Assembly (NCBI GenBank): GCA_050084515.1
Contig: CM114271.1
Span: 29,946,001 to 30,010,000, forward strand
Direction: 5' to 3'
Origin: Blasia pusilla
Lineage: Eukaryota
DNA length: 64,000 nt
The notes under the pieces are model-generated. The model had not been told where the DNA came from. It made no database searches and saw only the letters and a program-made list of their open reading frames with translations. Below, piece by piece: positions 1 to 33,329 of the stretch. Each line of letters opens with the position of its first letter. The first letter of the stretch is position 1. The translations under genes and the position numbers were made by a program.

Positions 1-1063
1 GGGAACATTGCTCTCAACACTTGTGTCGTCGATGGCATGTGTTCATCCCTGCGACTTAACGCATCTGGAATGACATTGTCCTTCCCCGGCTTGTGGATTA
101 GCTCCACATTCATCAACGCCAAGGTATCATGCCACCGAAGTTGTTTTGGCGTCACGCGATCCTGGGTCTCAAAATACTTGAGCGATATGTTATCGGTGAA
201 TACTCGAGTCCTGTGAAGTCCCAAATAGTGACGCCACTTCCTCAAGCAATGAACCACCGCAAACAACTCTTTCTCATGAGTAGGCCATCTCCTTTCGGTG
301 TCGGTCAGCTTCTTGCTTTCGTATGCTCAGTCTCCTTTTGCACCAACATTCTTGCAATCGCGAAATCGCTAGCATCCGTGTGCACCTCGAACAATTTGTT
401 CAAACTCCGGCGTTTAAGGCGGTTCTGCGAGAGGATCTCTTTGACTCGATTGAACGCTTTATCCACTTCCTCGGTCCATGTAGTATTGGAAAACTTTGCG
501 GTCCAATCCGTGAGAGGTTTCATTATGCCCGAAAAATTCTTCACGTATGTCCGTAAAAGCGACGGACTCGATGAACCTTCATCATCCCTTCACCGTGGAA
601 GGCGGTTCCCATTCGCAATCGCGCTCACCTTTTCCATGTCTGGACTCACTCCATTTGCACTGACCACATGTCCCAAGAACTTGATCTTCGTCAAACCGAA
701 CTCACTCTTATCCGCATTCGCATACAGCTTGTTCGCCCTAAGTTTCTCAAACACCGTCTTCAAATGTCGAGCGTGCTCCTCTAGTGTTTTCGAATAGATG
801 AGTATGTCATCTATATAGATGATCACAAACTCATCCGTCTCCTTGTGAAAGATGGAGTTCATCAAAGTGGTAAACGTCGGAGGCGCATTACAAAGACCGA
901 AGGCATTACTACAAACTCGAACGAACCGTATCTCGCCCTCTGAGCGGTCTTCTCTACATCCGCCGGCAATCCGAATCGATAATATCCTGATTTCAGGTCA
1001 ATCCGGCTGAAATACTTGGCACCCGACAATCGATCAAAGAGGTCATCCATCCTCGGTAGAGGA
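1..1063 (-). mobile_element. Ty3/Gypsy pol fragment (RT-RNase H) of a conventional family distinct from the DNMT element; frameshifted, cut at the RT YPLP motif
   Basis: ORFs 862-1050 ([23 protein letters not shown]), 590-865 (VIIYIDDILIYSK, KFLGHVVS) and 305-544 (EVHTDASDFAI); bases 1-115 translate on - to IHKPGKDNVIPDALSR (RNase H end). Confidence 0.92.
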
Positions 1064-1339
1064 ATAGGTTGGGAAGAGCCAAAAGGCTCAAACCCTAAAA
1101 ATAGCCCTTCCCTTGGTAACCTGCGCGCACAGGTTACCAGGGGCAGGTGACCTGGTCAACAAGTCACCCGACTGTAAAAGACCTCAACATGAAAGTTGTC
1201 AGAAACAACGTTCCTGACGCAATGGACCTATCCTCAACCTCATCCGACACTATGGGACAAAGTTACACTCAAGATAGTCCGCTGGCTCCTACGCCCTATC
1301 CACGATAGATCTCGGCCTATCGGCTACTCAGATGTGACA
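1064..1339 (-). repeat. Truncated second LTR copy (U3-like part only, stops at the TATA box)
   Basis: About 98% identical to 9930-10205; joins directly to the unrelated RT fragment at 1063. Confidence 0.9.
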
Positions 1340-1555
1340 GTTGTCGTGCGCATACATATCGCTACACAACATACATCGCTCATCACATCTACACCACACA
1401 ACACTGATCTTCCCCACACACGGGTCGATCCACACATGTACAAAAATCAACTCATACATATATATGGAGATCACTCAACCGCCCCCCTAGCTGGCAGTTG
1501 GATCCCCCCAACTCCAGATAGAAAATATCACATCTCTCTGACATGACCTACTACC

Positions 1556-1710
1556 CTATACACATCTCGGACACATCCATCGTCCCGTGGGAACCACATC
1601 AAGAGGGGGGGGGTCAGACATGACATATGCCACCCTCGAGAACAACCATCATATACCAACATGGTGGCTGCACCCCTCGCAGATCCGCACGACATACACC
1701 TCAAGCATGC
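1556..1710 (-). CDS. PHD finger at the polyprotein C-terminus
   Basis: CMSC...MLVYDGCSRGWHMSCLTPPL, then after a shift in the G-run at about 1605-1613 DVVPTGRWMCPRCV*; stop at 1556-1558. Confidence 0.88.
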
Positions 1711-2760
1711 AAGTACTACAGCCAAGCTCGGATCCACCGTCCCATCTACGTTCGGAAGATGACATGGCGCACAATTGCGCACATGATCCTTCCAAACCAT
1801 ACCATCACGTCCCTCCAACATGAGGACTCCGGTCGGTAATACCTCGCGTAGGATCGTACGCCCTGCAGTGACATCTAGCGTCGTGGGTTCCGCCTGCTGT
1901 AAATACACGTAATCTCCAGGATGAAACCTCCTAATCCCTGGACGATAACCTCCTCCACGAATGGTTGCGTACCTCAATGTATCTCTATGCTGGGCAATAG
2001 CTAAGTTCTCAAAGGCCATAGGCATAACTCTACGAAAAACTTCTGCCCTCTGAGAACATGCTTGCACCCACACATTTGGATCATCAAGATCTAACACCTC
2101 CGCCATGTCACGTCGAATCGCTGCAGGTAAATCTGGCTCTCTCCCAAAGAGCAAAAAGTACGGTGAAAATGACGCCAAGGATGCCTACCAACTAAAGCGA
2201 TAACCCATAGCCAACCATGGCAAGCTGTGAGGTCCCACTCCCTCAATCGCCCCCCTTTGCAAGCCATACTTGCAGATCCTCTCTTCACCGTCTGTACCAC
2301 TCTCTCCGCCAATCCATCCGCCTCGGGATGATCTCGGGCGTGGTGCGGTGATCTATCGGCCCCTGATCACACAAGGCCTGAAACTCTCCCGAACTGAACT
2401 CGGTACTGGACGGTCAACACCTCATTTGGTGCACCAAAGTAACTAAGCACACGATCTAGAAATGCATAAGTTGTTCCCTTGCTCGCCTTGTCTGGTAGTG
2501 CCACCAACTCTATCCACTTGGAGAAATGCTCCACCATGACCAACACGTACCTATGATGACGCCCTGTCAATGGCAAAGGTCCCGCAAAGTCTAAACTCCA
2601 CCGATAACCTAAACCCATAATCGGCAAAGGATGTAACTGCGGAGTGGGAGCATTGAAGGATGCTCGCAATCTGTCACATACCATACATCTGGCCACAAAC
2701 AGCTGTACCCCAGTATGCATGCCGTGCCACCAATACTTGAACATGGAGTAAGTTGTAAGT
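1710..2760 (-). CDS. DDE integrase core and C-terminal region (frameshifted)
   Basis: CMVC, WSLDFAGPLP, VMVEHFSKW, AERVVQTVK, SPYFLLFGREP, FHPGDYVYL. Confidence 0.93.
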
Positions 2761-4514
2761 ACGCTTTACTCCGAAATGTCCCAACTCCTCATGGGCATGT
2801 CGCACTACACGTGCTCGCTGGGAAGGATGAGGTACCACTCGTATCCTACCATCTCCCCATATCCACAAAATGTGAGTCCGCTCCCACCTGAACCTCTTGG
2901 CTCTCTGTAGGATCCGATCCCACTCCCTAGCACTCACTGTACTCGCAATGACACCAGTGCGGAAGAAGTCCACAACCTCCACGTCGTCATGGATATCACG
3001 ACCACATGTCGCCTCCTCACTAATCTCCGGATCCAAAGACTCATCATCCAATCCCACCACTGGAGTCATCACCTGTGGCTGACTTGCCATAGTCAACCAA
3101 CAAAGATAGGCAGATGCATGCCAACCGGGCACCATCTCCTCATCACTCTCTCCGTGCCATCGAGCTCCCGTGACGTCTCTCTGACTCAGACATGGCTTAC
3201 GACTCAATCCATCCGCATCCTGGTTCATCCGACCTGGCCTATGAACCACCTCAAACTCATACTCCTGTAGTAATAGAGCCCACATGGCAAGCTTTCCCGT
3301 AAGCTTGTCCAACTCCATCAACCACCTCAACGGCTGATGATCAGTGATAAGTGTGAAAGGGTTGCCAAATAAATAGCACCTAAAATGTGCCACGGCCCAC
3401 ACTGCAGCCAAGCACTCTCCCTCGTAGGAGCTGTACTTCGCCTCTCCAATGTTGTTCGATCGACTCGCGTAAACGAACTCCCTCTCCTTGTCATCCCTCT
3501 GAGTAAGCACTGCTCCTAGACCCAACATGCTCCAATCCGTATGTAACTGGAATGGGCGACCCCTAACCGGTCTCTGTAAAATGGGTGAGGACATCAACCT
3601 GTCCTTGAGCTCCTGAAATGCTCGCTCCTGATCATCTCCCCACAACCACACTTGATCAAGTCTTGTCAACAAGGTCAAAGACTTTGCGATCGCACTAAAA
3701 CCCTTGACATACCGTCGATAGAAGTTCGCCAGTCCAAGAAATGCTCGGACTCGACTCACATCTATAGGGCGTGGAATCTGCGCAATAGCCTCTACCTTCG
3801 TCTGCTGAACGCCTAACCCACTTGGGTATATGGTGTGTCCCAAGTACTCAATCTGCTCCTGAAAGAATCTGCACTTGCCTGGATGTAACTTCAGTCCATG
3901 TAACTGCAATCGTCAAAACACCTCCTCCAAGTGTCGCTCATGCTCCTCAACCGTGGAACTGAAGATAAGAATATCATCTATGTAACATCGTACAAAATCC
4001 AAGCCAGACAAAATCCTATCCATCACTCTCTGAAACTCCGCAGGCGCGTTCTTCAACCCAAATGGTAAGAACCGCCATTGATACAAGCAATCTCTCCGGA
4101 ACCGATCTATCCCCTAGAATCTTTGTCTTCTCCTGTCCTCCAACTTTGATAGGAAGGATGATGATAGCCAAGACGGAGATCTAAATCTGAAGATCTTTGC
4201 ATGCCCTACCGCATCAAAGATCTCCTCAGGAGTAGGCATGGCATACCGATCCGACCTCGTCTGTCGGTTGATAGGACGGTAATCTCGACACATCCGCCTA
4301 TCCGTCCAATTGCCATACATATCCTTCTTTTCCGGCATGACTGTGGCAGATGCATACTCCCTATGTGATAACTCCACAAGTCCTGACTCCTGCTCTGAAT
4401 CAAGGCTCGTTCCATATCAGAATACCTGTAGGGTCGACGAAAGATCGGCGTATCACTAGCCAACTCAATCCGTATCCGGGACCCTTCAAAGATACCCAAG
4501 TCTCTCATAATCAA
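2760..4514 (-). CDS. pol: Reverse transcriptase, RNase H and integrase zinc-binding start (frameshifted)
   Basis: RMCRDYRPIN, YAMPTPEEIFD, CYIDDILIFS (about 3960-3990), IEYLGH, LHTDWS, TDHQPL, NQDADGLSR, HEELGHFG. Confidence 0.95.
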
Positions 4515-4894
4515 GGCAAAACAACCGACATGCCCTCTCGAAACCTATGAACTGCCGTCGCTCTCCTCCTATCAACTTGAGACCTATCATAGGCTCCCAA
4601 GTCTCCATCGTGACCTCACTCGGAGAGGCGCAACCTCGGCTTTGGTTGCTATGTAGCAACCCTAGCCACCTCCGCATAATGACCACTCCACTCGACCTCC
4701 TACACCATGCTCCACATCCGAAAAATGAACATGTGCTACTCTAGCCGCCTTTCGCACTCTCTGCTCGAACGATGTCCAGAAGTCCATGGGTGCCTATCTC
4801 TCCTCGTCTCGCCTGACCAATGCTGTCATGCAGACCTTGTAGGCAGTGGTCCAACTCGTGGACGTGACGGCATGGATGACACTCGCATCCGTCT

Positions 4895-5860
4895 CTACTC
4901 AGCCATACCTAGGCTGACTATCCATATGAGACAGTTGAGGTCCATCGCCAGCCCCAACACCTGTCTCCGTGATGCCTCAGTCATCCCTGGCACCGCCGTA
5001 GTACCGGTAGTGAACCCCATGGCGCGCTCGCGCTCATCTGCTATAGGCTCCTCCAATACTCCGGTCACCTCATCCCAAATCATGCCTGGCCCTCCCTGAT
5101 GAAAGGCATGGGATGCTGGGAAGCTCACCAACGTAGGTAAGGTTGCCCTCAACTCCCCCACCCTATTGGTCGTGGCCAACGGTGGTCTATCATCGCGTGT
5201 CACCACCTGAGATCGACGCCCTGAGTCCAAAATAGCATCCACCGTGAGATGTGGTGCTCTCGGACTCGTGTAGGCTCGACTCAAGTACTCTCGATGGTAT
5301 CAGGTTCGTCCACCACAATCGTGGACGATGGGCACGTGACCCAACTCTCGGTGCATCTAACAACACAGCCGGTCCTAACCAGGACCTCACCTAATGTACA
5401 CTCGTCATCACACGTGCACGAGTATCTCCCAACAATGGCACGTTCTCCAAAATGTACGCTGGAGAACATATCTGACTCTGCTGCAAGTGTCGTACTACTC
5501 GCAGCATCTCCCAAAACATCCCTGACCTCGGATCCTGCAATCCTAATCCTCGGCCAGCTGATGAATGACCCTGACATGGCCATCCAGAAATCACCAAATG
5601 AATGGTGCCAACTCTATCCAGATCTTGCGCCCCCACCAAAGATATGTCGGCGGGTAGCGTATGCTGGTATCCCCGTACTGCAGATACCGACAACAACTCA
5701 TGATACCTCTGGACCAATCTCGCCACATGACGTAATGATACTCGCCGCGCGGTCTCATCTCTCTCCACATAAAGGTACTGATGCACCCGTATGCCTGCCT
5801 GCAATATGGCCCCCAATCCGGTGCTAATCCCTCCGAAGAGATCTAACACCCTAACACCCT
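4895..5860 (-). CDS. C5 cytosine DNA methyltransferase catalytic domain (DNMT3-like), split over three ORFs by frameshifts
   Basis: Motif I VLDLFGGISTG, II YVERD, IV VISGWPCQGHS, VI ILENV (ORF 5391-6185); VIII AHRPRLWWTN (5190-5390); IX ERERAMGF and X RRQVLGLAMD (4895-5284). Confidence 0.93.
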
Positions 5861-6209
5861 CCTCTGGGCACTGCCACACAACAGGTGTGGTATCTAGTGG
5901 GGTCATCGTCTCCACTCCAAGAGCCCGATCGCCACGTGACACTCGCTGCTCGGGATAAAAACATGACTCACGCCTTTGCCTCACGAGGTCGTTGGCACTC
6001 CTCTGTAGCTCTCGAGTCGTACCCCATAATGGTGAAGAGGCATCGCTAACATGGGAAGAGACACCCGCCATGGCCTGTCTCTCCGTGGGACTATCCGCTA
6101 CTGGGACATCCTTCGCATGTGCGTTCCCCTCCAACAACTCTCTTGGCCAGCTAACACTACCTGTGAAAGCCGCCAACGTGGTCACAGATTCGCCTCGTGA
6201 TCGACCACC

Positions 6210-7232
6210 TCATCCCGCAAACTGCACGGGTAACTTACTCATCCGACCGTCACCTGACCGCCATCTTGACCGATAAGCAACGGTCTCCTCCCAGAAGTCA
6301 AGGATGAATCCTAGGGGATATAACACTGTACTCCCCACCAACACATCGTACGACTCAATTGGTGTCGTAATCGCACGTGTGCGCACCATAGCACTATCCG
6401 TCGCATGCTCTGGCTGGACTCTCACAACAATCTCCTGTTGAGTCATATACTGAGTGGGTGATACGCCCCCAATCGAGGTCTGTATCTGGAAGGGACAAGG
6501 CTCAATGTCGGCCTTCCGTAACCCCAACGCTAAACACGCTGCCTTCCCTAACATCAAGGGTTGCGCTCCCAAATCAAGTAGGACGCGCTGTGGGTGGTAT
6601 ACTGTCCCCGTCGGACTAACCAAGCAAAATACTCCAGCTCGGTTATCCATTAACACTACTCCAGGTGTCACCACTGCTTGCTCTATGGCCGGTCGAGCTG
6701 GTATATCTACCAACTTTGCCGCCGCCGCATGCCATGACTCTGTGGGGAACGTCCCAAGCAGCGGCTCTGAGGGCAAGTCCACCACCTCCTCAACTACCTC
6801 TGAACAAGAAACAGTCATCTCTCCACGCTCACACAACGTGGCGGCCAACCGGAACACCTCAGCTGGTCCAACTCCCAACGTCGCCAACTCTAAGGCGGAA
6901 AATAGTGGAGTCTGACTCACTCTAGTGGCCACCTCCAATACTATAGTCGACATTGACTCCACTCGAGCCGGCATAGGAGTTGTCACTCCAACTCCTCGTG
7001 ACGTTGACGTAGGTGCCTGAATTGTAGGCACCGCTGGTCGTCGAGGCACCATCGATGGTGTGTGTAGTGCCTCCGACAATGTGACCGACTGTGGAACCCT
7101 GGCCTGCCGCCCATCGGTCCCCTCTGGTGGGTCAATCTCAACTCCACCTCTCGATGGCTCGGTGCCTCTCAGCAGACCCCGAGTCACCATCGCATTTGCC
7201 TCAACCTGGGCTGCACTACACATGAATCCCAT
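6210..7232 (-). CDS. Retroviral-type aspartic protease region of the polyprotein
   Basis: VLLDLGAQPLML (D-x-G active-site motif, DLG rather than DS/TG) and YDVLVGS motif in ORF 6210-7232. Confidence 0.8.
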   Translation of the reverse strand: MGFMCSAAQVEANAMVTRGLLRGTEPSRGGVEIDPPEGTDGRQARVPQSVTLSEALHTPSMVPRRPAVPTIQAPTSTSRGVGVTTPMPARVESMSTIVLEVATRVSQTPLFSALELATLGVGPAEVFRLAATLCERGEMTVSCSEVVEEVVDLPSEPLLGTFPTESWHAAAAKLVDIPARPAIEQAVVTPGVVLMDNRAGVFCLVSPTGTVYHPQRVLLDLGAQPLMLGKAACLALGLRKADIEPCPFQIQTSIGGVSPTQYMTQQEIVVRVQPEHATDSAMVRTRAITTPIESYDVLVGSTVLYPLGFILDFWEETVAYRSRWRSGDGRMSKLPVQFAG

Positions 7233-7289
7233 ATTGAGAGATCCTCACCCGGGTCAGGGTAAGAGGTACAAACCGAGTCACACTAGCGC

Positions 7290-8860
7290 TCGCGACTCCG
7301 TGCCTTCCCTAAGCCTGCATCATCGTCATGGCAGCAATCCTGCTCCAAGCGATCGATGCGTGAGAGAAGGGCCGGCTCTGGTGCTCTGCTCCATCTCCCT
7401 CCGGCTGGTGGTGGTCCTCTACCACCACGCCCAGGAAGAACTCCCCGACCTCCTCCAGACGACCGCCCCAAGCCCTCGGCCTACCCTGGGACGTGCCCCT
7501 CGGCGAAGGTCAAAACATCTATCCCTAGTGTGACCATATCTGTGGCAATGGTCACACTGGTGTGTGGGTGGGGCCATCCTCGTGGCTCTGCGCAATCGAG
7601 GCGCTTTGGTGGTCCCCTCCCATCTTGTGGGCGATCTCTCTGCCTATGGGCCCCTCCACACGCCCAACAAGACCACATCGGTCCCTATTTGGGCAACATA
7701 TGTAGGTGCGGTCGTTGCCTCATAGGCTCACGGTACCCGCCCGCTCTCTAGGCACACTGCCCGCTCCGTGGTATCTGGTGCTCATTTGTGGCACCGGTGG
7801 GGTCACCGCCGCTCGTGGACCCGTCGACTCTCGAGAAAATCCAGCGGTCACTACCGCTCCTCACTCATGTTGAGCTCAATACGCTCAGAAAACTCAAAGA
7901 CCACCTTCAATGCGGGCTTCATTTGTGTGAATCAAGACCGCATCTCGGACTCTCCTCCGTAGTTCTCGGTCCGAACCCGTACCAATCTTTGGACGATCGC
8001 ACCTCGATCCACCCAAACGTAGCAATGATCAGCCTCCTCATGCGTGTGAATGCCTCTTTCGGACTCTCACCCGATCGTCGCTGAAAATCTGTCAGAGACT
8101 CTTGACTTGTCGGTGCGTATGCCCTAGTAGCTCTTCCCCAACCTGTTGGAAGAACTCCCTTTGTGGGGTTGGCGGGTGGCCCTCTACCACCAGAGGTCTC
8201 GCCACATCGCTTTGTGTCCCGCCCTCCTCTCCATCTAGTCTCCGGGATGTTGGTGTGGGTCTCTCTCCTCTCACAATCCCATCATATGCCTCGCGACCAC
8301 TAGTGGACACATACCCTGGAGCCCAATACATCCTCCAGGCATCGATCTCTACTGAATATAGTGATCAGAACTCCATGTAGTCATCCATCGGAGGACCCTC
8401 CAAGTGCTCGAACAACCCCTTCCATGCCATGAAAGGGTTGAACCGTGTCGGGGTCCGTATCTCCTGGAAGTCGCACCATGTGTCAAACTCTTGGATGAAA
8501 TCATCTAAGTCGATGGTGCCCACTACACCCGAGAAACGACGCATGCCCCGATGGCCCATGTCGTCCATCTCCTGCCAAGTACTACTGTCTCTGTCGGTGA
8601 TCGCCGTCACGGACCGGTGTCGATGATAACGATCCGATCCACGGATGGATGTTGAGGGAGCTCCTCACTGGTAACCCCTCGGTATCTCACTCCACTCCGT
8701 GTCACACCACTACCACTGCTCGCACTACCCCGTTCTTCCGAACCCAGGAAGAACGCCGTGATGACAAACCCTGTCTCACCCGCTCAAGCACTCAGACTCA
8801 CCGAGAGTCTCCCACACGCCTCACTAGCTCACCTATGCTAACGTCAATCCCATGATGACA
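7290..8860 (-). pseudogene. gag: Gag (frameshifted) with CCHC zinc knuckle(s); true start uncertain, possibly near 9120 or further upstream
   Basis: FSGVVGTIDLDDFIQEFDTWC (ORF 8365-8610); CDHCHRYGHTRDRC knuckle at about 7516-7557 (my translation); second degenerate knuckle CWACGGAH at about 7640-7670. Confidence 0.8.
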
Positions 8861-9713
8861 TACTCGGCCTCACGCACGCTCAACACTCGGGCTCACCATG
8901 AGCCTCCCAACTGACTCACCTAACCTAGCGACACACTCTCGGGTCATACACGCGACCCCTACTCGGCAACCGCCGTATATCCACCAACATGCTACACATG
9001 AAAATAATCTACACTCGTCACCATCAGTGCACCCATCTAGCACCAACTACTACCCGATACCCATCACTCTCAATCATACACGACAAGTGCGGGAAAAGGG
9101 ACTCGAATGGGTAACCTGATCACGCCCTCCAACCTGCTATACCGTCAATATGCACTCCTCCACATGATATGACAATCTCTGCCACATAACACTCCCCTCG
9201 ACCAACACGTCGATCCTCCCGTCAACAGATGCGGACAACCCGTCGGCATCATGCACACTGTCCCTCCAGCGTAAACTCTCGCAACGCCCTATGCGCGCCT
9301 CAAAAACATCATGTCACGCCCGTTGTCTAACTTGTCGATCACTCAGCACGTCGACATCCTCCTTGCCCTCACGTTGCCCATGCGCACCGCGTTCGCCGGA
9401 CCGACCTCGTCCGTCCTACCACGTTGGAGAGGGGGGGGGGAAGACTTGGACCGCGGCCCTGTAAGACCCAAACCTGCCCGTTCCTTCTCTCTTGACGCCT
9501 TCACTTGCGTACACCCGACGCCCCACCACACGCTACACTCGGCTGCTGTCCCCCAACAATCCGCACCAGCAAAATCTGAGAAAAATGGACAGCGCTTCCG
9601 CCCACGGCCTTCCGAATAGAAAAAATGACACACAACGTCACACACACGTCTCCAGGGGCTCCCGACCAAGGCAACTCGCTTGCCTACCGCAAACTCTTAA
9701 TTCCCACCCCGAC

Positions 9714-9723
9714 ATCTTTCTCA
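9714..9723 (-). promoter_or_regulatory. Putative self-priming PBS (TGAGAAAGAT), complementary to the predicted transcript 5' end
   Basis: Lies immediately after the LTR-terminal CA; 9713-9726 and 9888-9901 form a perfect 14-bp inverted repeat; conserved at 16505-16518 / 16677-16688. Confidence 0.65.
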
Positions 9724-10205
9724 TGTAAAAATAAAGAGTAGTAAAAACGGCACACCTGGCCTAAAACTCCACTCCTCAATCTACATCGGCATATCGAGCC
9801 TCGTCCACCCTGTGCTATCAAGGAATCCGGACACTAGCACCCTAGTCCTAGCTCACACACATATAAGGGAGGTGCTCCAACGGCCCAACATGAGAAAGAT
9901 GGCTTAGGAAAGCTATCTTCCTCTCTTATATAGGTTGGGAAGAGCCAAAAGGCTCAAACCCAAAAAATAGCCCTTCCCTTGGTAACCTGCGTGCACAGGT
10001 TACCAGGGGCAGGTGACCTGGTCAACAAGTCACCCGGTTGTAAAAGACCTCAACATGAAAGTTGTCACAAACGACGTTCCTGACGCAATGGACCTATCCT
10101 CAACCTCATCCGACACTATGGGACAAAGTTACACTCAAGATAGTCCGCTGGCTCCTACGCCCTATCCACGATAGATCTCGGCCTATCGGCTACTCAGATG
10201 TGACA
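9724..10205 (-). repeat. 5' LTR of subfamily A (about 482 bp, TGTCAC...TTTTTACA)
   Basis: Starts TGT at 10205 and ends ACA at 9724 on - strand; contains TATATAA (9926-9932); same boundaries in the older copy at 16516-16830. Confidence 0.8.
9900..9932 (-). promoter_or_regulatory. LTR core promoter: TATA box and predicted TSS (C|A at 9901/9900)
   Basis: TATATAA at 9932-9926 on - strand, 32 nt upstream of a pyrimidine-purine CA initiator. Confidence 0.6.
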
Positions 10206-13200
10206 AGCGCCTAGAGATGTGTGTGTGAATTTTTTTGGTGTGTTTTTTGTTCAGAAGACCATAAGAGGTAGCGTTGCCCATTTTTCATGGGTTTTTCTCA
10301 TAGTAGAATTGTGTAGGGCAGAAGCAAGGTATCTGAGAATTTTGCTCCGGTGTAGCACCGAGGAATCATCATGGAAAGAGTGGTATGTGTCAAGAGATAA
10401 GAGGAAGAGTTTTAGGGCTTGCAGCCGCCCAAAAAGGGGGCTATCAAGTAAAGGGCGGTTGAACTAGGTTTATGGCGGCTAGGTCAGCTAGAGTTTGGTA
10501 TCTGAACATAATTGGTTCATGTCACAAGAATTTTTTAGGTCGCGCATGATACGAATGTCGTGTTAGGTCAACTCAGAGTTGTCCGCGTAAGGAAGAAGAG
10601 GAAACGGAAAACACTTAGTTGTCATAGCCATGGGTTGCCTTGCGCGGGTGCGGCGGACCTATGAAGACGATATACAAAAATCAAAAGGCATAAGGACTTG
10701 TGCAAGGGGACGGAAACCAAGCGGATGGGAAAGGAGAAGGCGTGGTCACGGCTGCATATGAAGCCGTGTCGTGGTCTAGGTGTGGCAGGCCATGCATAGG
10801 GTAATGTGTAAATTGCGGGAAGGGGAGTTCATGGCAGGACAACCAAGAGCGTAGATGCGATATAGCGGCAAAGGCAGGGTTTGTTCACTCATGGCTAAAG
10901 CAAGTTGACGGAGGTATAAGGGAGACGGGGACGTCGCGTAACGGCGTCTAAGAAAGTGGGAGCATTGAAGGGATGAGTATCTGCATAGGGCCATACGCTC
11001 GAAGAGAGGGGGGTGCAGATAAAGTTGCAACAAAGGTTTGCAAGTCGGACGAAGACATAAACAAGAGAGAGGTAGTGTTGGTTGCAGGCTCGAGAGAGTA
11101 CAGGCTCAGATAGAAGGAAGCCAAGGGGTGCTCCTGCATAGGGATGTGGGCTGCAGTGTTGATGGAGGTAGCTACGACATGTGTGAGAGCCATGTTGTGT
11201 GCATAAGCAGTTGGAAGTAGTAAGAGGGGCTCCATGTGGTGAGGCAATGAATACTTAGTTTGTAGAGCAATACATTGTGAACGGTTGATATAGTTAGGCA
11301 TTGGACGTAGTACGTTGGTGATTGGAGAGCTTCTTGGTTAGGGGGGGTTTCAATTTTCCCCATAGTAGTAGGAGGTGTTGCGATGAGGGACGTCCAATTG
11401 GGATCTTGAGTTCAACGATAAAGTATTCATTTGCTAGTTTTTTGCCGATTGGTGTTGAGAGGGGTGATGTATATTTCCAAATTGTGATGGAGTGCTACAG
11501 GTGGAGACACATACACTGATGTTGATAGATAGTCCACATCTATTTATGGGAGGTTTGAAGTGTGCTCGAGGAGATTCTCCGGCTAGGGAAGCTGCCACAC
11601 CACATGGAGTAGTGAGTGTTGACCATGTAATAGAGTGATGGGGGGCGTGTTAACATTATCCATTCAAATCCCTTTTCTCACATTTGTCTTGTGTCATTGG
11701 GGGTGTTGGGTATCAAGTAGAGCTTAGGCTAGATGGATGTAGTGCTGGTGACGGGGTGTATGTGTAGCATATTTGTGGTTATAGGGCGGTTGTCCAACTA
11801 GGGGTTGCGTGCATGATCCGAGAGGGAGTATCCATAGCGTAGGTGAGCTAGTTCGGGAGGCTCAGGGTGAGCTGAGTGTTGAGTGTGCGTGAGGCCTGGT
11901 GTGTTATCACGGGATCGATATTAGCTTAAGTGAGTTGGTATGGAGTGTTGGAGACTCTTGGGGAGTTTGAGTGCTTGAGCGTGTAAGGCAGGATTGTCAT
12001 CACGACATTCTTCTACAATTCGGAAGAATGGGATAGTTGGAGCAGTGGTAGCGATGGTAATTGGATTGCTATGATAGGACATATGGTCTGGTGACAAGAT
12101 TGCAGATGGAGACAATGTCATGTACATGTGGAGGGTGATGGATGATATGAGCCATTGGGGCATGCATCGTTCTTGGATGTGGTAGGCACCATCAACTTAG
12201 ATGATTTCATCCAAGAGTTTGACACATGGTGTGACCTCCAAAAGATACGAGCCCTTATGTTGTTAAAGCCTTTCATGGCTTGGAAGGGTTTGTTTCAACA
12301 CTAAGAGGGTCTTGCAATGGATGATTATATGGAGTTTGGGTCTTTACACTTAGTAGAGATCAATGCATGGAGGATGTATTGGGCTCCCGTATATATATCC
12401 ACATATGAGGTGTATCAAGGGAGAGTAAGAGAGGGTAGACCTACACCATCAACCCAGAAACTAGATGGAGATGATGGCAATGATGGTGGCAAGGTGGCAA
12501 AGATCTCAAGTGCTACAGCACCACCTTCTTTCAGTCCTACAGTGGACTTGTTTCAACTGTTGGGGAGGACCTACCTAGGCCTATGGACCGACAAGCTTAA
12601 GAGTCTACATGATTTCTAGTGGAGATCGGCTGAGAGGCATTCATGCGCATGCAATGATTGATCATTGCCACACATGGAGTGATTGAGGCACAATCAGAGC
12701 AGTATTGGTATAGGGTTCTGGAACGGGAATTACAAAGGAGAGTATGAGATGCAATTTTATTTCCCACAGCCCACATTGAAGGTGGTCTTTGAATTAATTG
12801 AGTAGATTGAGCTCAACATGAGTGAGGAGCAGGTCGTTACCATAGGACTTTCTCGAGAGTCAACGAGTCCACAAGTAGTAGCAGCCCCTTAGGTGCCCCA
12901 GTACCACGGGAGCCGGCCGGTGTGCTTAGAGAGTATCATGAGCCCATGAGACAATGACCCATGCGTACTAATATCCGTTGCCTCGCACGGATCGAAGATG
13001 GCTTGTTGGACGTGTGCTGGATCCCATAGGCTGAGGGAATACCCACAACATGGCAAAGGATCGAGGGAACCTATGATCTCTTATAAGCCACGTAAGATGG
13101 GCCCACCACAATTGCATTGTGACGATTTTCACCGATATGTTTTGATGTTCGTTGAGAGCTACGTCGATAAGTAGGTTGAGGGCCACAAGGTAAGAGAGTT

Positions 13201-14440
13201 GGTGGAGATCAAGGAGTTGAGTATTGGGTGGTAGAGTTCCATCCTCAGTCAAAGGAGATGGAGGACGTGCACCCGATGAAGTGCTCCTCACTTGCATCGA
13301 TATGTTGAAGAAAAGGATTGCTGCCATGACAATGTTGCAACTAGTGACAAATACGGAGCCGAGACAAGCTACTTTGGCTCCATTCTCTACATCATATCAA
13401 GATACGAGGGAGGATTATACATATTTGAGGTTCATATGCAGTGCAGCTCAGGTAGAGGCTGATGTGGTGGTGACTCGGTGCTACAAGAGTGATGGAGCCA
13501 CATAGAGGTAGGGTTGAAATAGACCCACAAGAGGGAACCGATGGGCAACACGCTAGGATTCCCCAATCATTTGTGTAGTCAGAGATACAACATACACCAT
13601 CGATGGTGTCCATAGAGTGTCCACGTGTGAGTAAGGTGCGTCGACGTCACGAGGAGTTGGAGAGAAGACTCCTATTGCAGCTCGAGTGGAGCCAATGTCG
13701 ACCAAGTTGTTGGAAATGCCTACTAGGATGATTCAAGCACAATTATTTTCCGCCATGGAGTTGGTGTCAATAGGAGTTAGACCATTGGAGATATTTCAGC
13801 TAGCTACCATGTTGTGTGAGCATGGAAAGGTGATTTCCTCTCATTCAGAGGTGGTGGACATATCCTCGGAGCAAGTGCTTGGGGCGCCTCCCACTCACTC
13901 ATGGAAGGTTGCGATGAAGAAGTTGGTAGATATATCAGCTACGCCAACGATAGAGCGAGCTATGGTGACACCTGATGTGGTGTTCTTGGACAACCAAGTT
14001 GGATTTTTTTGTTTGGTTAGTCCCACGGGTAAAATGTATCATCACACTACGTCCAACTTGATTTCGGACGTATCCCTTGATGTTAAGGAAGGCTGCATGT
14101 TTGGCGTTAGGGTTACATAAAGGCGACATTGAGCCTATTCTATTGGGGGCGTGTTATCCACATAATACATGACTCAACAAGAGATAGTTGTCAAGCTCCA
14201 ATCTGAGCACTATTTAAGCATGGGCTAGATAGTACACACTTGTGCGATTACAATACCAACAGAGTCGTATGATGTATTAGTAGGAAGTACAATGTTGTAT
14301 CCCTTGGTTTCAACCTTGATTTTTGTTAGAAGACAATTTATAGTGGTGTTCGACCTCGTGAGGATACAGTGATCACGTTGGCAACATCCACAAGTGGTGT
14401 TAGCTGGCCAAAAGAGTTGTTGGAGGGAAACCCACATGCA
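10206..14440 (+). mobile_element. Older, inverted relative of subfamily A (leader, gag, protease); 5'-truncated and ending just before the DNMT
   Basis: 10206-10300 matches the reverse complement of 9580-9660; ORF 12317-12619 (MDDYMEF...WRMYWAP) and ORF 13686-14120 align to the gag/protease region of the young copy. Confidence 0.88.
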
Positions 14441-14529: not shown

Positions 14530-17035
14530 TGTTGGAAAACCTACCTCACATGCTCAAGCACTCATACTCACCAAGAGTCTTCCACACTCCTAATGTGTGG
14601 AACACTCTTGGTGAGTCTTCCACACATTAGGAGTGTGAGTCTAATGCTAATTCCTTGATGATATACCCAACCTCATACGCACTCAACACTCGAGTTTACC
14701 CTAAGCCTCCCAATGCAAACTAGCTCACCTAAGCTATTGACAATCTCTTAGGTCATACGTACAACCCCAACTATGGAAAGCACCCTTTATCCACAAACAT
14801 GCTACATGCGCAAGGAATCTACACTCAACACCATTGCTACACCCATCTAGTTAAAGCTCTACTCAATACCCTCAATGATACGAGATAAGTGCGAGAAAAG
14901 AGACTCCACTGGGTAACCTTAATACGGACATCATCACTCTACTACACGATTAGCATTGATTGGCCCATATGGTGTGTCAACCTTGTAGCATGAAAATCTC
15001 CTGAAATAGCATATGAAACCTTCGGTTAATGGTTGTAGACTACCCGTCATCATCAACGCATGTGTCTGCACCACTGACACTCCCTTGGAAAATCTCAGCA
15101 CGGATCACTGATCTCACCTCGAGTTAGCACAATGCAACTAAATCAAACTCTCTTAATGACTATTAGGGCTGGCAAAGCTTGTCACAAATCATAATCCCCG
15201 CTTGAAAACACCAAGTCGCAAAAATATATCCTAAAAATATGGAAAAGCTATCCAACCACGTCAGCCCATCTTACCAAGTATCAACCATGAACATAACCAT
15301 GTAGTAGCTCAATCACGTATGACCTTCAACCACACTCGACTCCCAACCTCATAAGCATGACCACTTTGCAACCTCCCTTCACCGAGTTGAACTTGTTTTG
15401 TGCTTACTGATTAAAGAACCACGTCTGTCCTCTTCCAAATCCTTCTCTTGATCAAGATTGCTTGCATGCCTATGCCTATCCAAGCCCTACACGAGCCCCT
15501 ATGGCTAACCTCTAATTGACCCCTCAATTTTGCCGCCGATGTGTCTCAGCTCTCCTTCCATCGACCTCCACGTGACTCTAGCAGCATGGGGCCTTATGCA
15601 CCTCCCACTACCTTTGGAGCCATAATGGCTCCCTCTTTCCCCTCATGGACCTCCTGCCACAATAGCTACACATCGGCTCTCATGCTCTTTCGCAATCGTG
15701 TACTCTATCCAGCCATTTGTGACCCTCCTTCTGGCACAATCGACACTTCGTACATGCCGCCCTATGCAGCATTGACCCCCTTTCCCTATTTTCTTGGAGC
15801 CATAACGGCTCCTCCTAGCCTCCTTCCAAAATTCGTCTTAGCCTCCTTCAAACTTGATTAAGGCAGTTCTCTTCCCGGATTCCCGGTCACTCAACTCCCT
15901 CCTCCGTTGTTGCTACCATATGTGCAACTCAATCATATGTTTGGGTGCCTCCATCCAGCCCTCATACGCAAGCGCACTCAGTCCTACTTCTTGACTTCCT
16001 ACATACGTTGTACGCACCTTCATAAGACACTAGCCTACTTACTCGTATGGATGTGCGTCCCTCTTTAGTGGACGGCTATCATGCCACTTCTACATCCTTG
16101 TCCGCCTATGCGTCCATCAACTTGCAGGCCAAGGTTGCATATGGAAAAATTTTGTTTTGGTATGTCCATGGGCATGTCTAAACTTTTCCGTCCATGCCCG
16201 TCCTAGGGACTGACTTGTCCAATTTTATGCAACAATGTTGCCGCCCTTAGGCTCGCATCTGCATGAAGCCCTAGTGGATTGCTTCCCTATGAGCTTGCAT
16301 GTCCTCTAACACCGCATGTAGTTGTTTCTTCAACATGTGTTACCCGGTTCACAACTTGTGAGATCCAAACTCGGCTCCATCGTCCTCTCAACCTACTTGG
16401 CCCTTGCAACCTTTGACCTTGCAACACCTAGGCTTCGGCCACTGGCTCTCTTCTTGTAACCTAACCCTAGCCTGACCTAGCCAAAATTTCCCCTTTCCCC
16501 CTCCCATCTTTCTCATGTAAAATTGCAGTAAAAATTGAGTGCAAGGCCAACTTGACTCGGGAATCTACATCGGCATATCAAGTCACATCCACCGTGAGCT
16601 ATGAGGGAATCCATACGCTAGCACCCTAGCTCCTACCACACACAAAGTAGCAAGAGAGATGCTCCAAAGGCCCAATATGAGAAAGATGGCTTGAGAAACC
16701 CATCTCTCCCTCTCTTATAGCCATCCCCATGGTAACCTACGTGGGTAGGTTATCAGGTGACCCTTGACCCTTGACCCTCTATGTCATCAACGTAGTAGAA
16801 GTGTACCTACCGGGTAACTAAGATGTAGCAAGTATCGTGCGCATACATGCTGCTACATAATCCACACCATACAACTGCGATCTTTCCAATACATTGGTAG
16901 ATCAACATAAAAAAAGTACTCTTATGTATATAAATCAAAATCATCCAACCACCCCCTAGCTACCAATTGGATCCCCCTAACTCTAGATAGAAAAGATCAC
17001 CTCTACCTGACATGATCTACTACTCTATACACATT
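14530..17035 (-). mobile_element. Decayed subfamily A tandem remnant: 3' end (16833-17035), LTR (16516-16830), leader and gag start
   Basis: 14530-14925 resembles 8770-9120; 16500-16830 resembles 9710-10205; 16833-17035 resembles 1342-1565. Confidence 0.8.
16130..16237. mobile_element. 108-bp MITE of the hAT-like family
   Basis: TIRs CAAGGTTGCATA / TATGCAACAATG; flanking 8-mers TTGCAGGC / TTGCCGCC (6/8). Confidence 0.7.
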
Positions 17036-17049
17036 TAGCACCGTCAATG

Positions 17050-18020
17050 TTGTCATTCCTTCAGGATCTCCCAACACTTGCACCCACTGAACTATCTCAT
17101 CTATCTCCAGCTAGAGGTATCGATGTATCTGTACATCGTCCTATAACATTGGAGCTAACCTCTATGTTGATCCCTCCAAAGATCTCTGGTACTCTTGCAC
17201 CCTCCTCCCACCACTGCCACTCCACATGTGTGGTATCCAAAGATATCAAGTCTCCACTCCAAGACCACAACCCTCACTTGACTTTGTCTCCTCTGAGAAA
17301 CAGGCATTGCTCCACACCTGCCTCACAAGCTCGTTTGCATTCCTCTGAAAAATGATGGTCTCCACATCATGGGAAGAGACAGCCATCCTCGGATGTCTCT
17401 CCAATGTCGACCATATTATTGGAGATGGCCACTAGGATGAGCTAGGCTCCATTACTTTCCACCATGGACTTGGTAGCGATGGGAGTTGGACCAATATAGG
17501 TCTTCTGACTAGCAACCAGGCTGTGTGGGTGTTGAGAGGCAACTGCCTCTCCACACCCAAGAAGTTGGTGGACCTGCCCTCGCAATAGGTACTTGGTACT
17601 TCCTCCACTAAGTCATGATAGGTCACAACGGCTAAGTTGGCGGATATGCCACCTAGGCTTGTGATAGTGCAAGCCGTGATGACACTAGGTGTAGTTTTGT
17701 TTGATAATTGGACTAGAGTCTTTTGCTTGGTTAATCCCTACGGTACAATACATCATGCATGGTAGGTTCTACTTGATTAAGGAGCGCATCCCTTGATGTT
17801 AGGGAAGGCGGTGTGTTTAGAATAAGGATTATAGAAAGGTGACATTGATGCTCATCCCTTTCAAATATATACCTCTATTGGGAGCATATAATCCGCGCAA
17901 TACATGAATCTACAAGAGTTAGTAGTCAAACTCTAGCCAGAGCATGCGTTAGATGGTGCGATAGAGTGTACTCGTGCAATAACGACACCGGTAGAGTTGT
18001 ATGGCATAGTTGGTAGGGAG
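17050..18020. mobile_element. Rearranged fragments of the DNMT-Gypsy family: DNMT motif I region (-, about 17050-17415) and protease region (+, about 17420-18020)
   Basis: gatccctccaaagatct...cactgccactccacatgtgtggtatc matches about 5825-5895; ccttgatgttagggaaggc matches the PLMLGKA coding sequence in the opposite orientation. Confidence 0.7.
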
Positions 18021-20138
18021 TATGGTTTTGTTTGCAAGTGTGTTTCAAGTCATTTTTTTATGCATGGTATTTGCAATTTATGAGTCATTTGTAAGGCACA
18101 CTCATAAATCTCAATATGGGGTGTTTGTGAGTCTTTTGCATTTCGTAGGACTTGTAAACGCATGGGACTTGCAACTTGATGATATTTGACTTGCAAACTA
18201 TATTTTACTCGAAAATGAATCACACAAAGTGGATTCACAAATCTCAACTATCAAAGTAGTCACAATCGTGGAAAGGACTCATATGATGATAAATGTGCAC
18301 CTCTCATGGATTTAAAAAAAATATAAACGAGGGTCTAAGATGAGGAGTGTATTTTTTTCCCCATTTTTTGTCTATCATGCATACATGACTATGATGACCA
18401 ATGATAATTTCAATTATATATACTTGCTTATGATTTCTTATGATTTTTTATCACAAGAAAAATTGAAAGCATAGAGGTTTTATTTTCCATTTTCTATATG
18501 AATGGTTATGACAAGAAATATGGGATGATGTGATGTTGAGAGGAAGGAAGGAGGGGTTTGTTCTTATTTTTAGAATAAGGATGCTGGATTTTGAGGGGGA
18601 TTAATTTTTTCTAAAATAAATCAGAAATAAATTTTAATATTTCTTTAAAAATTAGTGCAGTGACTAAGTACTTAGGTTTAGAGGTTGGGCATTTTCAAAA
18701 TAAAGGGAAGGATTTGTTCTCTTTAAAATGTGGATTAATGGATGCTTTCAAAATGAAGAAGCGGCAATCTAAGGATTCAACCTCATTTTGAACTCCTTTG
18801 CTTGTTCTTCCTTTGACAACGAAGAGGAGGAAAACCATAAAGTGGAATTTTATCCTCGCGCCTATTCATCATCGGGTTAGGTTTTGGAGGGGGAAAGTCG
18901 AGTTAAGGGGTCAGAAAAACTTGGGAAAAAATTTAGCTCCGATCTGGATTTGAAGACACAACTTGCTCTCTACCAAGGGGAGAGGTTGCCACTACACTAC
19001 ACTCTCCTGCACATTGGAGTTGGGTACATGAACATTTTAGTCTTGCTTTGCAAGAAAATTTGGAAGAGGACCGAGGGTTAACTAACTCAACCTCGGCTTA
19101 GAAAACCCGAGGATGAATAGACGTAACGGGATTTTATTGATATCACATGAGTAGTTTAAAGTTATATCAACCATACCCATGAGAATTTTTTTTCGAGAAC
19201 TCTATAGTTTAAACAAGCCATAATGGTTTAATGGTCCATATGATGCAATAAAGAATCCATTACAACCCTTTGCATATGTATTTGGGAATGAGGGAAGTGG
19301 TTGTATTTAGGCTTGTATCCATAGACACAATGCGTGTGGATTCTTGAAAGACTTTCTATAGAAAGGGAGTATTTTTTTTTCCGAACTCCACATTTCAAGT
19401 TGATGGGATTTTGGAAATTTTGACATTTGCAGAAAATTAAAGATTTTTCCTTCCACAAGACTTATATTTTAGGGGAAGGCCTATGCATGGAAGCCTACAA
19501 GGGCCTACATTAGCTTTTATTTTACGAGTATAATTAAAAGCATAAAAGTTTGTGAAGTGGAATTTAATGGCTACAGAGATGTTCGTGGAAAAAAATGCAA
19601 GCAGGTTGGATAAAACCTACATAGAAGAGTGTATGTTTCTATGTATCTCCAACATATGAATCTCCCTTAAAGTAAACGTGTGTCCAACAAGTAACTACAA
19701 GGTAAAAGCATAGAAGCATATTGATGACTTAATAGATATCAACACAAATAATGAGTTGGCACAAAAATAAGGAAAGGAAACAAGGCCCAAACATAGAACT
19801 TAGAACACCTCTTGAATGAATAAGAATCTGTTCCTGGAAAAGAACTTATAAAGATATGTGGAATAAGATGTTCCATTCAAAGCGGCACCAAGACAATAGT
19901 TTGGCATTGACGAATCCCCATAAGGTGGAAAATTTTGACTCATGTTTCTCTAAGCAAGAACATTAAGCTTTGAGTTGCAAGAGTTGTAGTCTCAAAGTAG
20001 TGGGTGGTCGAAACACCAATAGTAGTAGTGGGCCAATACCAACATGTTAGTCCATCTTGTGCCCTTGTTTCTACCCCCATGGTTCGTAACGCGGGGTTCA
20101 TGCTCCAAGTCCCTTGGAAACCCTCACCCTTATATGTA

Positions 20139-23500: not shown

Positions 23501-24343
23501 CTTGCCCCATTCAACCCAATTGATATCCTCACATGGTGTTGTAACACTAATGAGCAAACATGAGCAAACACGAAACATCATAAATCTAGTGGAGTCATAT
23601 TACCATGGAAATGTTTCAAAGGCTTATGAGTGTGACATGAGTTACAGAAGCGAGATACGCGCCTTGATGGATGTCTTGGATAATTATGGTTATGACTTGG
23701 AAGAGCATAATCCAACTTCGGATAGACCTTCAGAAGAGTTGAAGTCCCAAAAAAGTTAAAATCCAAGGAACTTGGAATCTAGCTTTGAACTTAATTGAGT
23801 ATTTGGGGTTTTCCATATTTAAGGTCATAATTGTTAGTCCCAATATTTATTTGGGATAAATAATGTAGCGTTGGAAAGCTTGTGAGGAGATAACTCTAAA
23901 CACTAAAGATGTGGAAAGATAAAGAAGTAGAAGTATTGAAATGGGCCCAAAAATGTTGGAATGATAGTTTGGGTTGAAGGCTACTATGTTGTTCGCATAC
24001 ACATGATTGGTACACAACATACATCGTTGTCACCAAACATACACGATCCTATACTAACTCATGGAATATACACAATGAGACGGGAAGTACCAAAATATCT
24101 CCAATCGCCCCCCTAGGTGGTGATTAGGTCCCTCTCACTCCAGGTAGCCATCTGTCACTACCTACCATGACACACATCTCTCGGAGGCTAAGAGAAAAAA
24201 TGTGAGGTGCTCATGTGGCCCCATCGTTAGTTGCCTTCTTGTCATCCATGTCACAAACACAAGTCGGAATCTAGAACTATCTACTCTATGTACATTTGAG
24301 ACACATCCATTGTCCCCGAGGAACCCTAGTGAGAGGTGATGTC

Positions 24344-32918: not shown

Positions 32919-33329
32919 ATGTCGTGTTGAAGTTCTATAGAACTCTATCAAGGGGAAGGATCTTCAAAGGAGTTTGGAATATGAGCCTTTTATTTGGGAA
33001 CCATGGGGGTTGACCACAGATACATGATGGATTGTATCAATTCTTTTCTAGCAAATGGAGAATTTCTATGCAATGAGTTGCAAGATATTGGAGAGAGAGC
33101 CTAGAGGGTAAAGAATGACTTCCATAGAATATGCTAACCTAAAATTGAAAATTTTCCTTGGTTTGAGGTTTCTTGAAACGTATTTGAGGAACTTATTATT
33201 TTGAGAATGGTAACTTTCCATTTATGGAATGTAACATTTCATCCACTATTTCAAGTTTATGACAAAGGATGTGACTTGCGTGCACAAGTCACCAAAGAGA
33301 TAGAGATCATATTCTCTGCTTGTTGAACC

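Follow-up and report, generated by a model that had tools for sequence, protein, structure and literature searches.

A probable decayed Gypsy-DNMT3 methyltransferase module in a Ty3/Gypsy retrotransposon of Blasia pusilla

The analysis presented here concerns a stretch of 64,000 nucleotides of the Blasia pusilla genome (contig CM114271.1, positions 29,946,001 to 30,010,000; hereafter the window) and, within it, a Ty3/Gypsy retrotransposon, element 1, that extends from approximately 10205 to 1064 on the minus strand. Between its protease and reverse transcriptase (RT) regions, element 1 bears a DNMT3-type cytosine-5 (C5) DNA methyltransferase (DNMT) domain at 4895-5843(-), and this region is very probably the decayed methyltransferase module of an element of the Gypsy-DNMT3 kind, in intact copies of which the enzyme would act on complementary DNA (cDNA) or at the integration site. 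As read from sequence, the plan of the family consists of gag with a zinc knuckle, an aspartic protease, a DNMT3-type C5 methyltransferase, RT, RNase H, integrase, and a PHD finger. Elements of this kind became known in 2018, in one charophyte alga and in dinoflagellates (de Mendoza et al., 2018, Nat Commun 9:1341, PMC5890265).

The methyltransferase domain and its place in pol

A preliminary description of this DNA, made from the letters alone, had claimed a set of C5 methyltransferase motifs at 4895-5860, arranged linearly rather than in the permuted order of plant DRM enzymes. The motifs are named here (I, IV, VI, VIII, IX, and X) as is general for the C5 methyltransferase family. Translation and motif look-up recover all six at coordinates that fit, in linear order along 5843-4940(-): motif I, DLFGGISTG, at 5843-5817; motif IV, GWPCQGHS, bearing the PCQ cysteine, at 5585-5562; motif VI, ILENV, containing ENV, at 5453-5439; motif VIII, SRAHRPRLWWTN, containing RxR, at 5339-5304; and, in a reading frame other than that of motifs I to VIII, motif IX, ADERERAMGF, at 5041-5012 and motif X, RRQVLGLAMD, at 4969-4940. 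Consistent with the motif content is a Pfam match of the open reading frame (ORF) 5391-6209(-) to PF00145 (E 3.6e-10; 40.2 bits, the cut-off being 22). By itself, the C-terminal piece, ORF 4895-5299(-), has no Pfam match; it is approximately 58-59% identical to residues 1068-1240 of the Marchantia protein P0003 (tblastn, 172 positions). The catalytic residues are kept but the reading frame is interrupted: a stop lies in frame at 5393-5391, the frame shifts near 5290, and a further stop follows at 4897-4895. Three stops, at 5393, 4897, and 4828, lie in or just 3' of the domain.

On both sides the domain is joined to Gypsy pol. The order along 7013-1603(-) is protease region, DNMT, RT, RNase H, integrase, and PHD (tblastn), and the protease-RT-RNase H-integrase order of Ty3/Gypsy pol is found along 7013-2280(-) (tblastn and Pfam). 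Upstream, the protease region (6231-7013(-)) was located by tblastn with P0013 (residues 6-572) and P0022 (residues 6-242), matching from 7013. Its active-site stretch reads LLDLGAQ at 6581-6561, against a family consensus of LLDSGAQ, and the homologues P0024, P0040, and P0143 have a Pfam aspartyl-protease match at the position aligned to this region. Neither the protease ORF of element 1 (6210-7244) nor its gag ORFs match Pfam, and the protease, gag, and C-terminal DNMT assignments therefore rest on homology to named proteins.

Downstream, RT and RNase H occupy 2866-4599(-), where tblastn aligns P0013 residues 696-1189 at 54.7% and P0022 residues 516-939 at 68% identity. The reading frame changes twice more here, near 4540 and 4377, and is interrupted by stops at 4116 and 3915. 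The ORF 2674-3912(-) contains the end of RT, RT_RNaseH (4e-30) and, at its own end, Integrase_H2C2 (5.3e-5); RVT_1 reaches only E 0.0081 in the window ORF, in a stretch 68% identical to P0022, whose own RVT_1 match is 2.8e-29. The zinc-binding and core domains of integrase follow at 2280-2765(-) (rve 2e-8 and Integrase_H2C2 3.2e-4 in ORF 2367-2765; 63% identity to P0028 residues 1106-1230 by tblastn). The integrase C-terminal region with the PHD finger lies at 1528-2271(-) and was called from a weak Pfam match and homology to P0027: the PHD match in ORF 1528-2184(-) (E 6.4e-4, 20.1 bits) is under the cut-off of 24, the tail is 76% identical to residues 371-594 of P0027, a Marchantia PHD-type protein, and PHD is above the Pfam cut-off in the homologues P0191, P0043, P0155, and P0207. 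In the family the PHD finger ends the integrase, at the site where chromoviruses bear a chromodomain, as seen at 1528-2271(-), 24807-25620(-), and 49762-50408(-).

A DNMT3-type enzyme

The class of the enzyme was examined in the intact homologues P0003 and P0038 and not in the broken window copy. By the sequence and the predicted fold of these homologues, the kind of METHYLTRANSFERASE in the window elements is assigned to the DNMT3 type. Specifically, phmmer comparison of P0003 with the PDB returned 27 distinct sequences at E<=0.01, 25 of which are DNMT3A, DNMT3B, or DNMT3C (best 1.7e-8), in alignments that are colinear from motif I through motif X; the two others are M.HaeIII (0.001) and tobacco DRM (4onj, 0.0026). 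An AlphaFold model of P0038, a DNMT-only member of the family, was built from a 32-sequence alignment (pLDDT 95.1, pTM 0.92), and in a Foldseek search of the PDB all matches listed at ranks 1-50 are DNMT3A, DNMT3B, or DNMT3C chains, headed by 6w89_A (E 5.3e-21, TM-scores 0.71 and 0.80). In the 32-sequence alignment, where column identity averages 21%, no substitution is seen at the catalytic Cys or at the Glu of ENV, and the Gln of PCQ, the Asn of ENV, and both Arg of RxR hardly vary. When the Protein Atlas was searched with the domain, the matches were confined to generic clusters of phage-type methylases and added nothing.

The animal DNMT3A, DNMT3B, and DNMT3C catalytic domains (PDB 6w89, 6kda, 8tci) are thus the best sequence and fold matches and share the motif order and the RxR and ERxxGF signatures. 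They differ from the retrotransposon domain in that identity is 22-24% in the structural alignment and in that the latter is embedded in a polyprotein without an adjoining PWWP or ADD. Plant DRM, a de novo methyltransferase of plants, belongs to the same DNMT3-related superfamily (tobacco, PDB 4onj); unlike the colinear window domain, however, DRM is circularly permuted, with motifs VI-X before I-V, and 4onj pairs motifs I-IV of the query with the C-terminal part of its chain (residues 224-349). A permuted DRM reading was accordingly rejected, given the linear motif order and a 4onj match that is both weak and offset, and the linear arrangement claimed in the preliminary description stands.

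Recurrence within the window

At least five DNMT pieces, from at least two subfamilies, are found in the window, and none is functional. Besides that of element 1, one is that of element 2, a diverged subfamily, where the preliminary description had placed a copy at 28370-29300: tblastn with P0003 (residues 866-1243, 48% identity) locates it at 29338-28181(-), and ORF 28634-29218(-) matches PF00145 at E 1.1e-5 and 25.5 bits, so that the profile search suggested earlier finds the family in both elements. Motif I of element 2 reads DLFGRISTC, with R in place of G, and 7-8 in-frame stops are present. Directly downstream of this domain are the RT, RNase H, integrase, and PHD of element 2 (24807-27997(-); tblastn with P0013 residues 700-1190, P0028, and P0027), the PHD scoring 22.6 bits in ORF 24807-25133. 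Upstream, no gag or protease homology was found in 29400-33500. The earlier claim that the DNMT lies between protease and RT therefore holds in full for element 1 and on the RT side only for element 2.

A further fragment had been placed at approximately 17050-17415. Relaxed tblastn and inspection by eye of the six-frame translation identify a linker and a motif I stub at 17357-17153(-), with EIFGGINIE at 17186-17160, and this part of the claim is retained; the similarity is weak (28% identity to P0003 over 69 aligned positions), and no tblastn match at E<=1e-3 covers 17050-17415. The stub is followed 3' by sequence resembling a 3' untranslated region and a long terminal repeat (LTR; 17034-16562), as judged from flank similarities in self-BLAST, and it meets an inverted protease fragment at approximately 17400. 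Two decayed fragments are additional to the preliminary description: 38224-38549(+), which runs from after motif IV through motif VIII (P0003 residues 985-1094 at 40-45%), contains stops and lies downstream of a protease-region fragment at 37182-37715(+), and 49069-48729(-), which runs from motif IV (PCQRHS) through motif VIII (P0003 residues 973-1091 at approximately 50%).

The recurrence of the domain in a diverged subfamily, and in five remnants, bears out the earlier view that the DNMT is stable family cargo and not a one-off capture. The opposing explanation, that the DNMT stretch is a chance chimera in which a fragment of a host DNMT3 gene, or another element, became nested in one Gypsy copy, draws some support from its surroundings: the window holds a dense nest of rearranged elements, with copies lying head-to-head at 10205 and 11630 and fragments out of their usual order at 48700-53100, and the DNMT of element 2 has no recognisable gag or protease upstream. 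Against it, the same junctions are found in two subfamilies that are only 72% identical at the nucleotide level (over 2469 bp between elements 1 and 2 by self-BLAST); uninterrupted Marchantia and Closterium ORFs span protease-DNMT-RT-RNase H, in some cases with integrase; 58 of 303 DNMT-bearing proteins were typed to this order, as detailed below; and dN/dS is well under 1. The recurring junctions, the intact ORFs elsewhere, and the dN/dS led to rejection of the chimera, which is regarded as exceedingly improbable.

Relatives and two arrangements of pol

By sequence comparison, the closest named relatives of the window elements are polyproteins of the liverworts Marchantia and Calypogeia and of the moss Sphagnum. 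A word-indexed protein search, with a 272-residue window ORF as query and restricted to longer proteins, gave 28 matches, all of them relatives and 37-68% identical to the query: 17 from Marchantia polymorpha, two from Calypogeia fissa, two from Sphagnum, and seven unnamed. Among eight relatives submitted to Pfam, PF00145 was found in seven; in Marchantia P0013 and P0022 the DNMT stands upstream of RVT_1 and RNase H within a single ORF, and in P0024 the protease stands upstream of the DNMT. Marchantia copies of 1150-1330 residues share 81-95% identity with P0003 over the DNMT region, and the similarity of these long copies suggests that the family has been recently active in Marchantia polymorpha, where it looks young and is possibly still active. 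Six Marchantia polymorpha gene models of 1159-1333 residues (P0003, P0004, P0005, P0009, P0010, and P0017) are mutually 85-95% identical in the DNMT region, and the cluster of P0003 contains 18 member sequences.

Wider searches extended the family to algae. A profile of nine bryophyte-type proteins, compared with 1.84 billion cluster representatives, gave 8948 matches at E<=0.001, 1924 at 1e-10, and 442 at 1e-30, and the best 150 all exceed 220 bits. Four of 30 clusters looked up carry an organism label: Scenedesmus sp. PABB004 (annotated 'pol'), Closterium (two), and Tetradesmus deserticola (a transcript). Haematococcus lacustris appeared among the best 120 of 192 matches in a second indexed search, and a third, seeded with a Closterium domain, gave 31 matches: 19 from Closterium, one from Klebsormidium nitens (KFL_013780020, partial; P0143), one from Marchantia, one from EukProt, and nine unnamed. 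No vascular-plant protein is among the matches listed in these searches, which is weak evidence.

Pfam and in-house hidden Markov models reveal two positions of the DNMT within pol. The order protease-DNMT-RT is that of the window, Marchantia, and Closterium (P0295), and the partial K. nitens protein P0143 has protease-DNMT; the order RT-RNase H-DNMT-integrase is that of Haematococcus, Scenedesmus, and most metagenomic matches (P0191, P0043, P0155, P0301). The first order characterises streptophyte-type elements and the second chlorophyte-type elements. In both, the PHD finger is terminal wherever the tail is present. Typing of the 303 DNMT-bearing proteins assigned 136 to the second, algal order and 27 probably to it, and 25 to protease-DNMT-RT; in 33 more the DNMT is preceded by 500 residues or more that contain no RT, an arrangement compatible with protease-DNMT-RT, and 82 were not typable. 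No description of two DNMT positions in pol was met in the parts of the literature examined. A polyprotein of the algal type, P0278 (1974 residues, with RT, RNase H, integrase, PHD, and a DNMT match), is filed under a metagenome-assembled 'Minisyncoccia bacterium'; the likeliest explanation is that eukaryotic DNA was binned with a bacterial genome.

Phylogeny and comparison with known systems

Phylogenies were prepared with FastTree, from 234 proteins covering at least 80% of the 386-position DNMT profile together with the two window copies (X at breaks), and with IQ-TREE, by a quick search under LG+C20 without outgroup on a hand-picked 69 of these 236 rows. The coverage filter removed 69 proteins, including both Sphagnum proteins. 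DNMTs of the algal order (30 rows) form one side of a branch with an SH-aLRT of 98, and the window copies, bryophytes, Closterium, and K. nitens form the other. On the latter side, the K. nitens group of 8 rows is one clan (SH-aLRT 93), and another clade of 8 rows (SH-aLRT 100) unites both window copies with proteins of Marchantia and Calypogeia and two unnamed ones. The highest identity of the window copies is to Calypogeia, at 69%.

The nearest described system is KnitGypsy-Dnmt3 of K. nitens, in which intronless, non-permuted Dnmt3 domains are reported to lie inside Gypsy pol and group with host DNMT3, away from DNMT1, CMT, and DRM (PMC5890265). The window elements likewise are Ty3/Gypsy LTR elements with a non-permuted DNMT3-type domain in pol. 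The partial K. nitens protein P0143 has the order of element 1 (zinc knuckle, 297; protease, 598; DNMT, 833), and the SH-aLRT 98 branch does not separate it from the window copies, a placement that concerns one partial protein in a quick tree without outgroup. This shared architecture and DNMT lineage are the grounds on which the window elements are counted as members of the Gypsy-DNMT3 kind, and they uphold the link to de Mendoza et al. (2018) drawn in the preliminary description. Several differences are nonetheless apparent. Firstly, the window copies fall in a separate liverwort clade (SH-aLRT 100) and not in the K. nitens group, and the profile score of P0143, 234 bits against 587 for the best match, is far below those of bryophyte proteins. 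A second, possible difference concerns the repeats: a DIRS-like arrangement is given for KnitGypsy-Dnmt3 in a figure legend (PMC5890265), and element 1 shows a plain 276-bp direct repeat with a 3' end that seems truncated. Additionally, every window copy is dead.

Gypsy elements of green algae and metagenomes (the pol of Scenedesmus sp. PABB004, Haematococcus lacustris, Tetradesmus deserticola) share with the window the Gypsy backbone, a C-terminal PHD after integrase, and a DNMT3-type domain that scores more than 220 bits against the bryophyte profile; they differ in their order of RT, RNase H, DNMT, integrase, and PHD and in occupying their own side of the SH-aLRT 98 branch. SymbioDIRS-Dnmt3 and SymbioLINE-Dnmt of Symbiodinium are likewise retrotransposons bearing a cytosine methyltransferase, and the SymbioDIRS-Dnmt3 enzymes carry out de novo CG methylation in yeast; by their description, however, they stand apart as independent acquisitions on other backbones, namely DIRS with a tyrosine recombinase and LINE (PMC5890265).

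Later work uses the phrase 'streptophytes (Gypsy-DNMT3)' (bioRxiv 10.64898/2026.05.21.726589) and speaks of retrotransposon-embedded DNMT3 members 'in streptophytes and dinoflagellates' (PMC12344493). No report of Gypsy-DNMT3 in bryophytes or chlorophytes was found in the full-text literature searched; supplementary files, which lay outside the search, may list cases. The Gypsy-DNMT3 kind is already known (2018); the present analysis adds the placement in a bryophyte-type clade, shows how broad the family is, and distinguishes two sites for the DNMT module in pol.

Selection, transcription, and opposing evidence

Constraint on the domain was estimated from elements 1 and 2 by the Nei-Gojobori method, with codons matched via an intact homologue. 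The resulting dN/dS is 0.28 for the DNMT (364 codons), 0.17 for RT with RNase H, and 0.10 for the PHD-bearing end of integrase, values that are rough because dS between these two decayed copies is saturated (1.56-1.87) and both carry post-insertion decay. The DNMT value, which is not near 1, can only show that the domain appears to have been constrained over most of the divergence, and somewhat less so than RT; for KnitGypsy-Dnmt3, purifying selection with Ka/Ks < 0.2 is reported (PMC5890265), against the 0.28 obtained here from two decayed copies. The PHD-bearing integrase tail is the most conserved part between the two elements.

Transcription was surveyed in three raw RNA runs of the same species label, of each of which 6-12% was sampled. 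Reads of at least 95% identity numbered 206, 220, and 220, and reads of at least 99% identity 8, 18, and 9; first mates were nearly all on the plus strand. Depth was 0-0.9 in the DNMT bins (4704-5971) versus 1-12 over RT to integrase. These data suggest that related copies are weakly transcribed. In DNA contigs of one run the whole element is covered at very high summed depth, and 64 of the 80 variable places counted by kind of change are transitions.

Several observations weigh against the reading of this region as the module of a Gypsy-DNMT3 element with an active enzyme. The 3' repeat of element 1 looks truncated, ending abruptly at 1064, and no target-site duplication was seen flanking the repeats. 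From protease to PHD, element 1 has approximately six frame changes and at least seven in-frame stops in the best alignments. None of the five window pieces retains an uninterrupted DNMT reading frame, and, all copies being broken, no enzyme is encoded here at present. In element 2, motif IV reads PSH and not PCQ, and the catalytic cysteine is therefore lost. The three RNA runs gave no sign of expression of the element 1 DNMT. To these are added the saturated dS and the absence from the trees of a host DNMT3 or DRM outgroup, owing to which they are no test of a single capture. Finally, the isolated KnitGypsy-Dnmt3 domain gave no detectable de novo methylation in yeast, a result that its authors considered inconclusive; human DNMT3B was likewise inactive in the same assay (PMC5890265), and the negative is for that reason uninformative.

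Proposed mechanism

Translated within pol, the DNMT would be made alongside the replication enzymes, and it is probably packaged with them. In an intact member of the family it would be a working S-adenosylmethionine-dependent DNA cytosine-5 methyltransferase, and it is reasonably probable that intact copies are active on DNA. The target of the enzyme would be the newly made cDNA of the element or the DNA at the integration site, such that a new copy would enter the genome already methylated in a pattern suiting the element, and the C-terminal PHD finger probably reads histone tails and would steer integration as chromodomains do in chromoviruses. An action on cDNA or at the integration site was proposed by de Mendoza et al. 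for DIRS-borne enzymes (PMC5890265). As the purpose of the enzyme in the present family, self-methylation of cDNA (or action at the integration site) is held tentatively, at a little short of an even chance.

Two other functions merit consideration. One is that the domain is family cargo that does not methylate DNA, serving instead as a regulatory or scaffold subunit that is catalytically silent, in the manner of DNMT3L for DNMT3A, or as an RNA 5-methylcytosine methyltransferase acting on the genomic RNA. The failure of the KnitGypsy-Dnmt3 domain to methylate DNA in yeast is in keeping with such a role, and RNA methylation has been raised for a LINE-borne DNMT (both in PMC5890265). A scaffold would be expected to lose its catalytic residues, however, and the Cys of PCQ, the Glu of ENV, and the Arg-x-Arg are invariant or nearly so across very diverged sequences; moreover, the nearest structures are DNA-bound catalytic domains of DNMT3A/B/C. 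A role of this type is therefore considered unlikely.

The other is that the enzyme methylates host chromatin, near insertions or genome-wide, and not cDNA, which could dampen transcription of the element itself, and so spare the host some damage, or could disturb host silencing. As a rule, the Pol proteins of LTR elements stay inside the particle until integration takes place, which argues against such action, and the PHD finger, standing after integrase, may serve integration targeting only. The same finger, a typical reader of histone tails at the end of the polyprotein, hints at an action on chromatin, and silent KnitGypsy-Dnmt3 copies carry CHG and CHH methylation (PMC5890265). This possibility is judged rather unlikely, if somewhat less so than a scaffold or RNA enzyme, and action on cDNA or at the integration site remains the preferred function.

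Further features of element 1 and the window

Upstream of the protease, a heavily decayed gag-like region lies at 7613-8568(-), located by tblastn with P0003, the source annotation of which is CCHC-type domain protein: residues 1-215 align to 8568-7930 at 41.5% identity and residues 110-320 to 8215-7613. Self-BLAST identifies terminal direct repeats at 9930-10205(-), the 5' repeat or LTR, which begins TGTCAC at 10205, and at 1064-1339(-), the 3' repeat; the two are 276 bp long and 97.8% identical, with six differences. The 5' repeat probably extends to approximately 9727, as 9778-9930 is similar to the LTR-like sequence 16562-16719 of a third copy (self-BLAST) and genomic read joints terminate at 9727. 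A TATA-like box is present at approximately 9931-9924 in the 5' repeat, and no trustworthy primer-binding site or polypurine tract was found in element 1. In many genomic contigs and a few RNA reads, 1465-1480 in the 3' untranslated end is joined to 9727 in the 5' leader, skipping approximately 8250 bp, and a few letters at the joint vary. Such joints point to a short non-autonomous derivative of the family that arose by internal deletion (repeat, approximately 200 bp, approximately 140 bp, repeat). Abutting the truncated 3' repeat, 51-1065(-) is an RT and RNase H fragment of another Gypsy element, approximately 35% identical to the RT of P0013.

Stops occur where the homologue has Q, R, or W in 6 of 31 cases in element 1 and 8 of 24 in element 2; C-to-T decay was considered as their source and no conclusion was drawn, many of the stops in the gag alignment being frame artefacts. 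The CpG observed/expected ratio is 0.72-0.81 in the elements versus 0.64-0.74 in the flanks and is not distinctive. The G+C content of the elements is 49-57% versus 34-41% in their surroundings, and in 1-10000, 10001-14000, and 24001-32000 the sense strand of every copy has more G than C, a strong skew of 0.17-0.34 whose sign flips in inverted copies.

In this region, rearranged copies are nested together. At 11630-14306(+) and 17402-18022(+), head-to-head with element 1, there are gag and protease parts that belong to additional copies of the family, and another decayed copy contains a tandem duplication of approximately 270 bp (50533-50803 and 50859-51128, 89% identity). Ten long window ORFs outside the elements match no Pfam family, and the window has no Rfam matches and no tRNAs.

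Implications

Plant genomes combat transposons mainly by cytosine methylation, and a transposon with a de novo methyltransferase of its own would therefore invert the logic of silencing. With its copies dead, the window itself adds little as a functional locus; together with its database relatives, it indicates that this type of element lives in bryophyte-type genomes. Relatives are found in the chlorophytes Scenedesmus, Haematococcus, and Tetradesmus, the charophytes Closterium and Klebsormidium, and in Marchantia, Calypogeia, and Sphagnum. It is possible, though on balance doubtful, that Gypsy-DNMT3 is an old lineage across green plants (chlorophytes, charophytes, and land plants), with a PHD finger after integrase throughout, with two positions of the DNMT in pol, and with transposon methyltransferases that may still be shaping the land-plant methylome. 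Intact-looking copies are present in Marchantia polymorpha, a plant in which genetic work and methylome profiling are routine and in which function could be tackled. If the proposal is true, Gypsy-DNMT3 would not be an oddity of Klebsormidium, and its function would be genetically testable in a transformable plant, Marchantia polymorpha.

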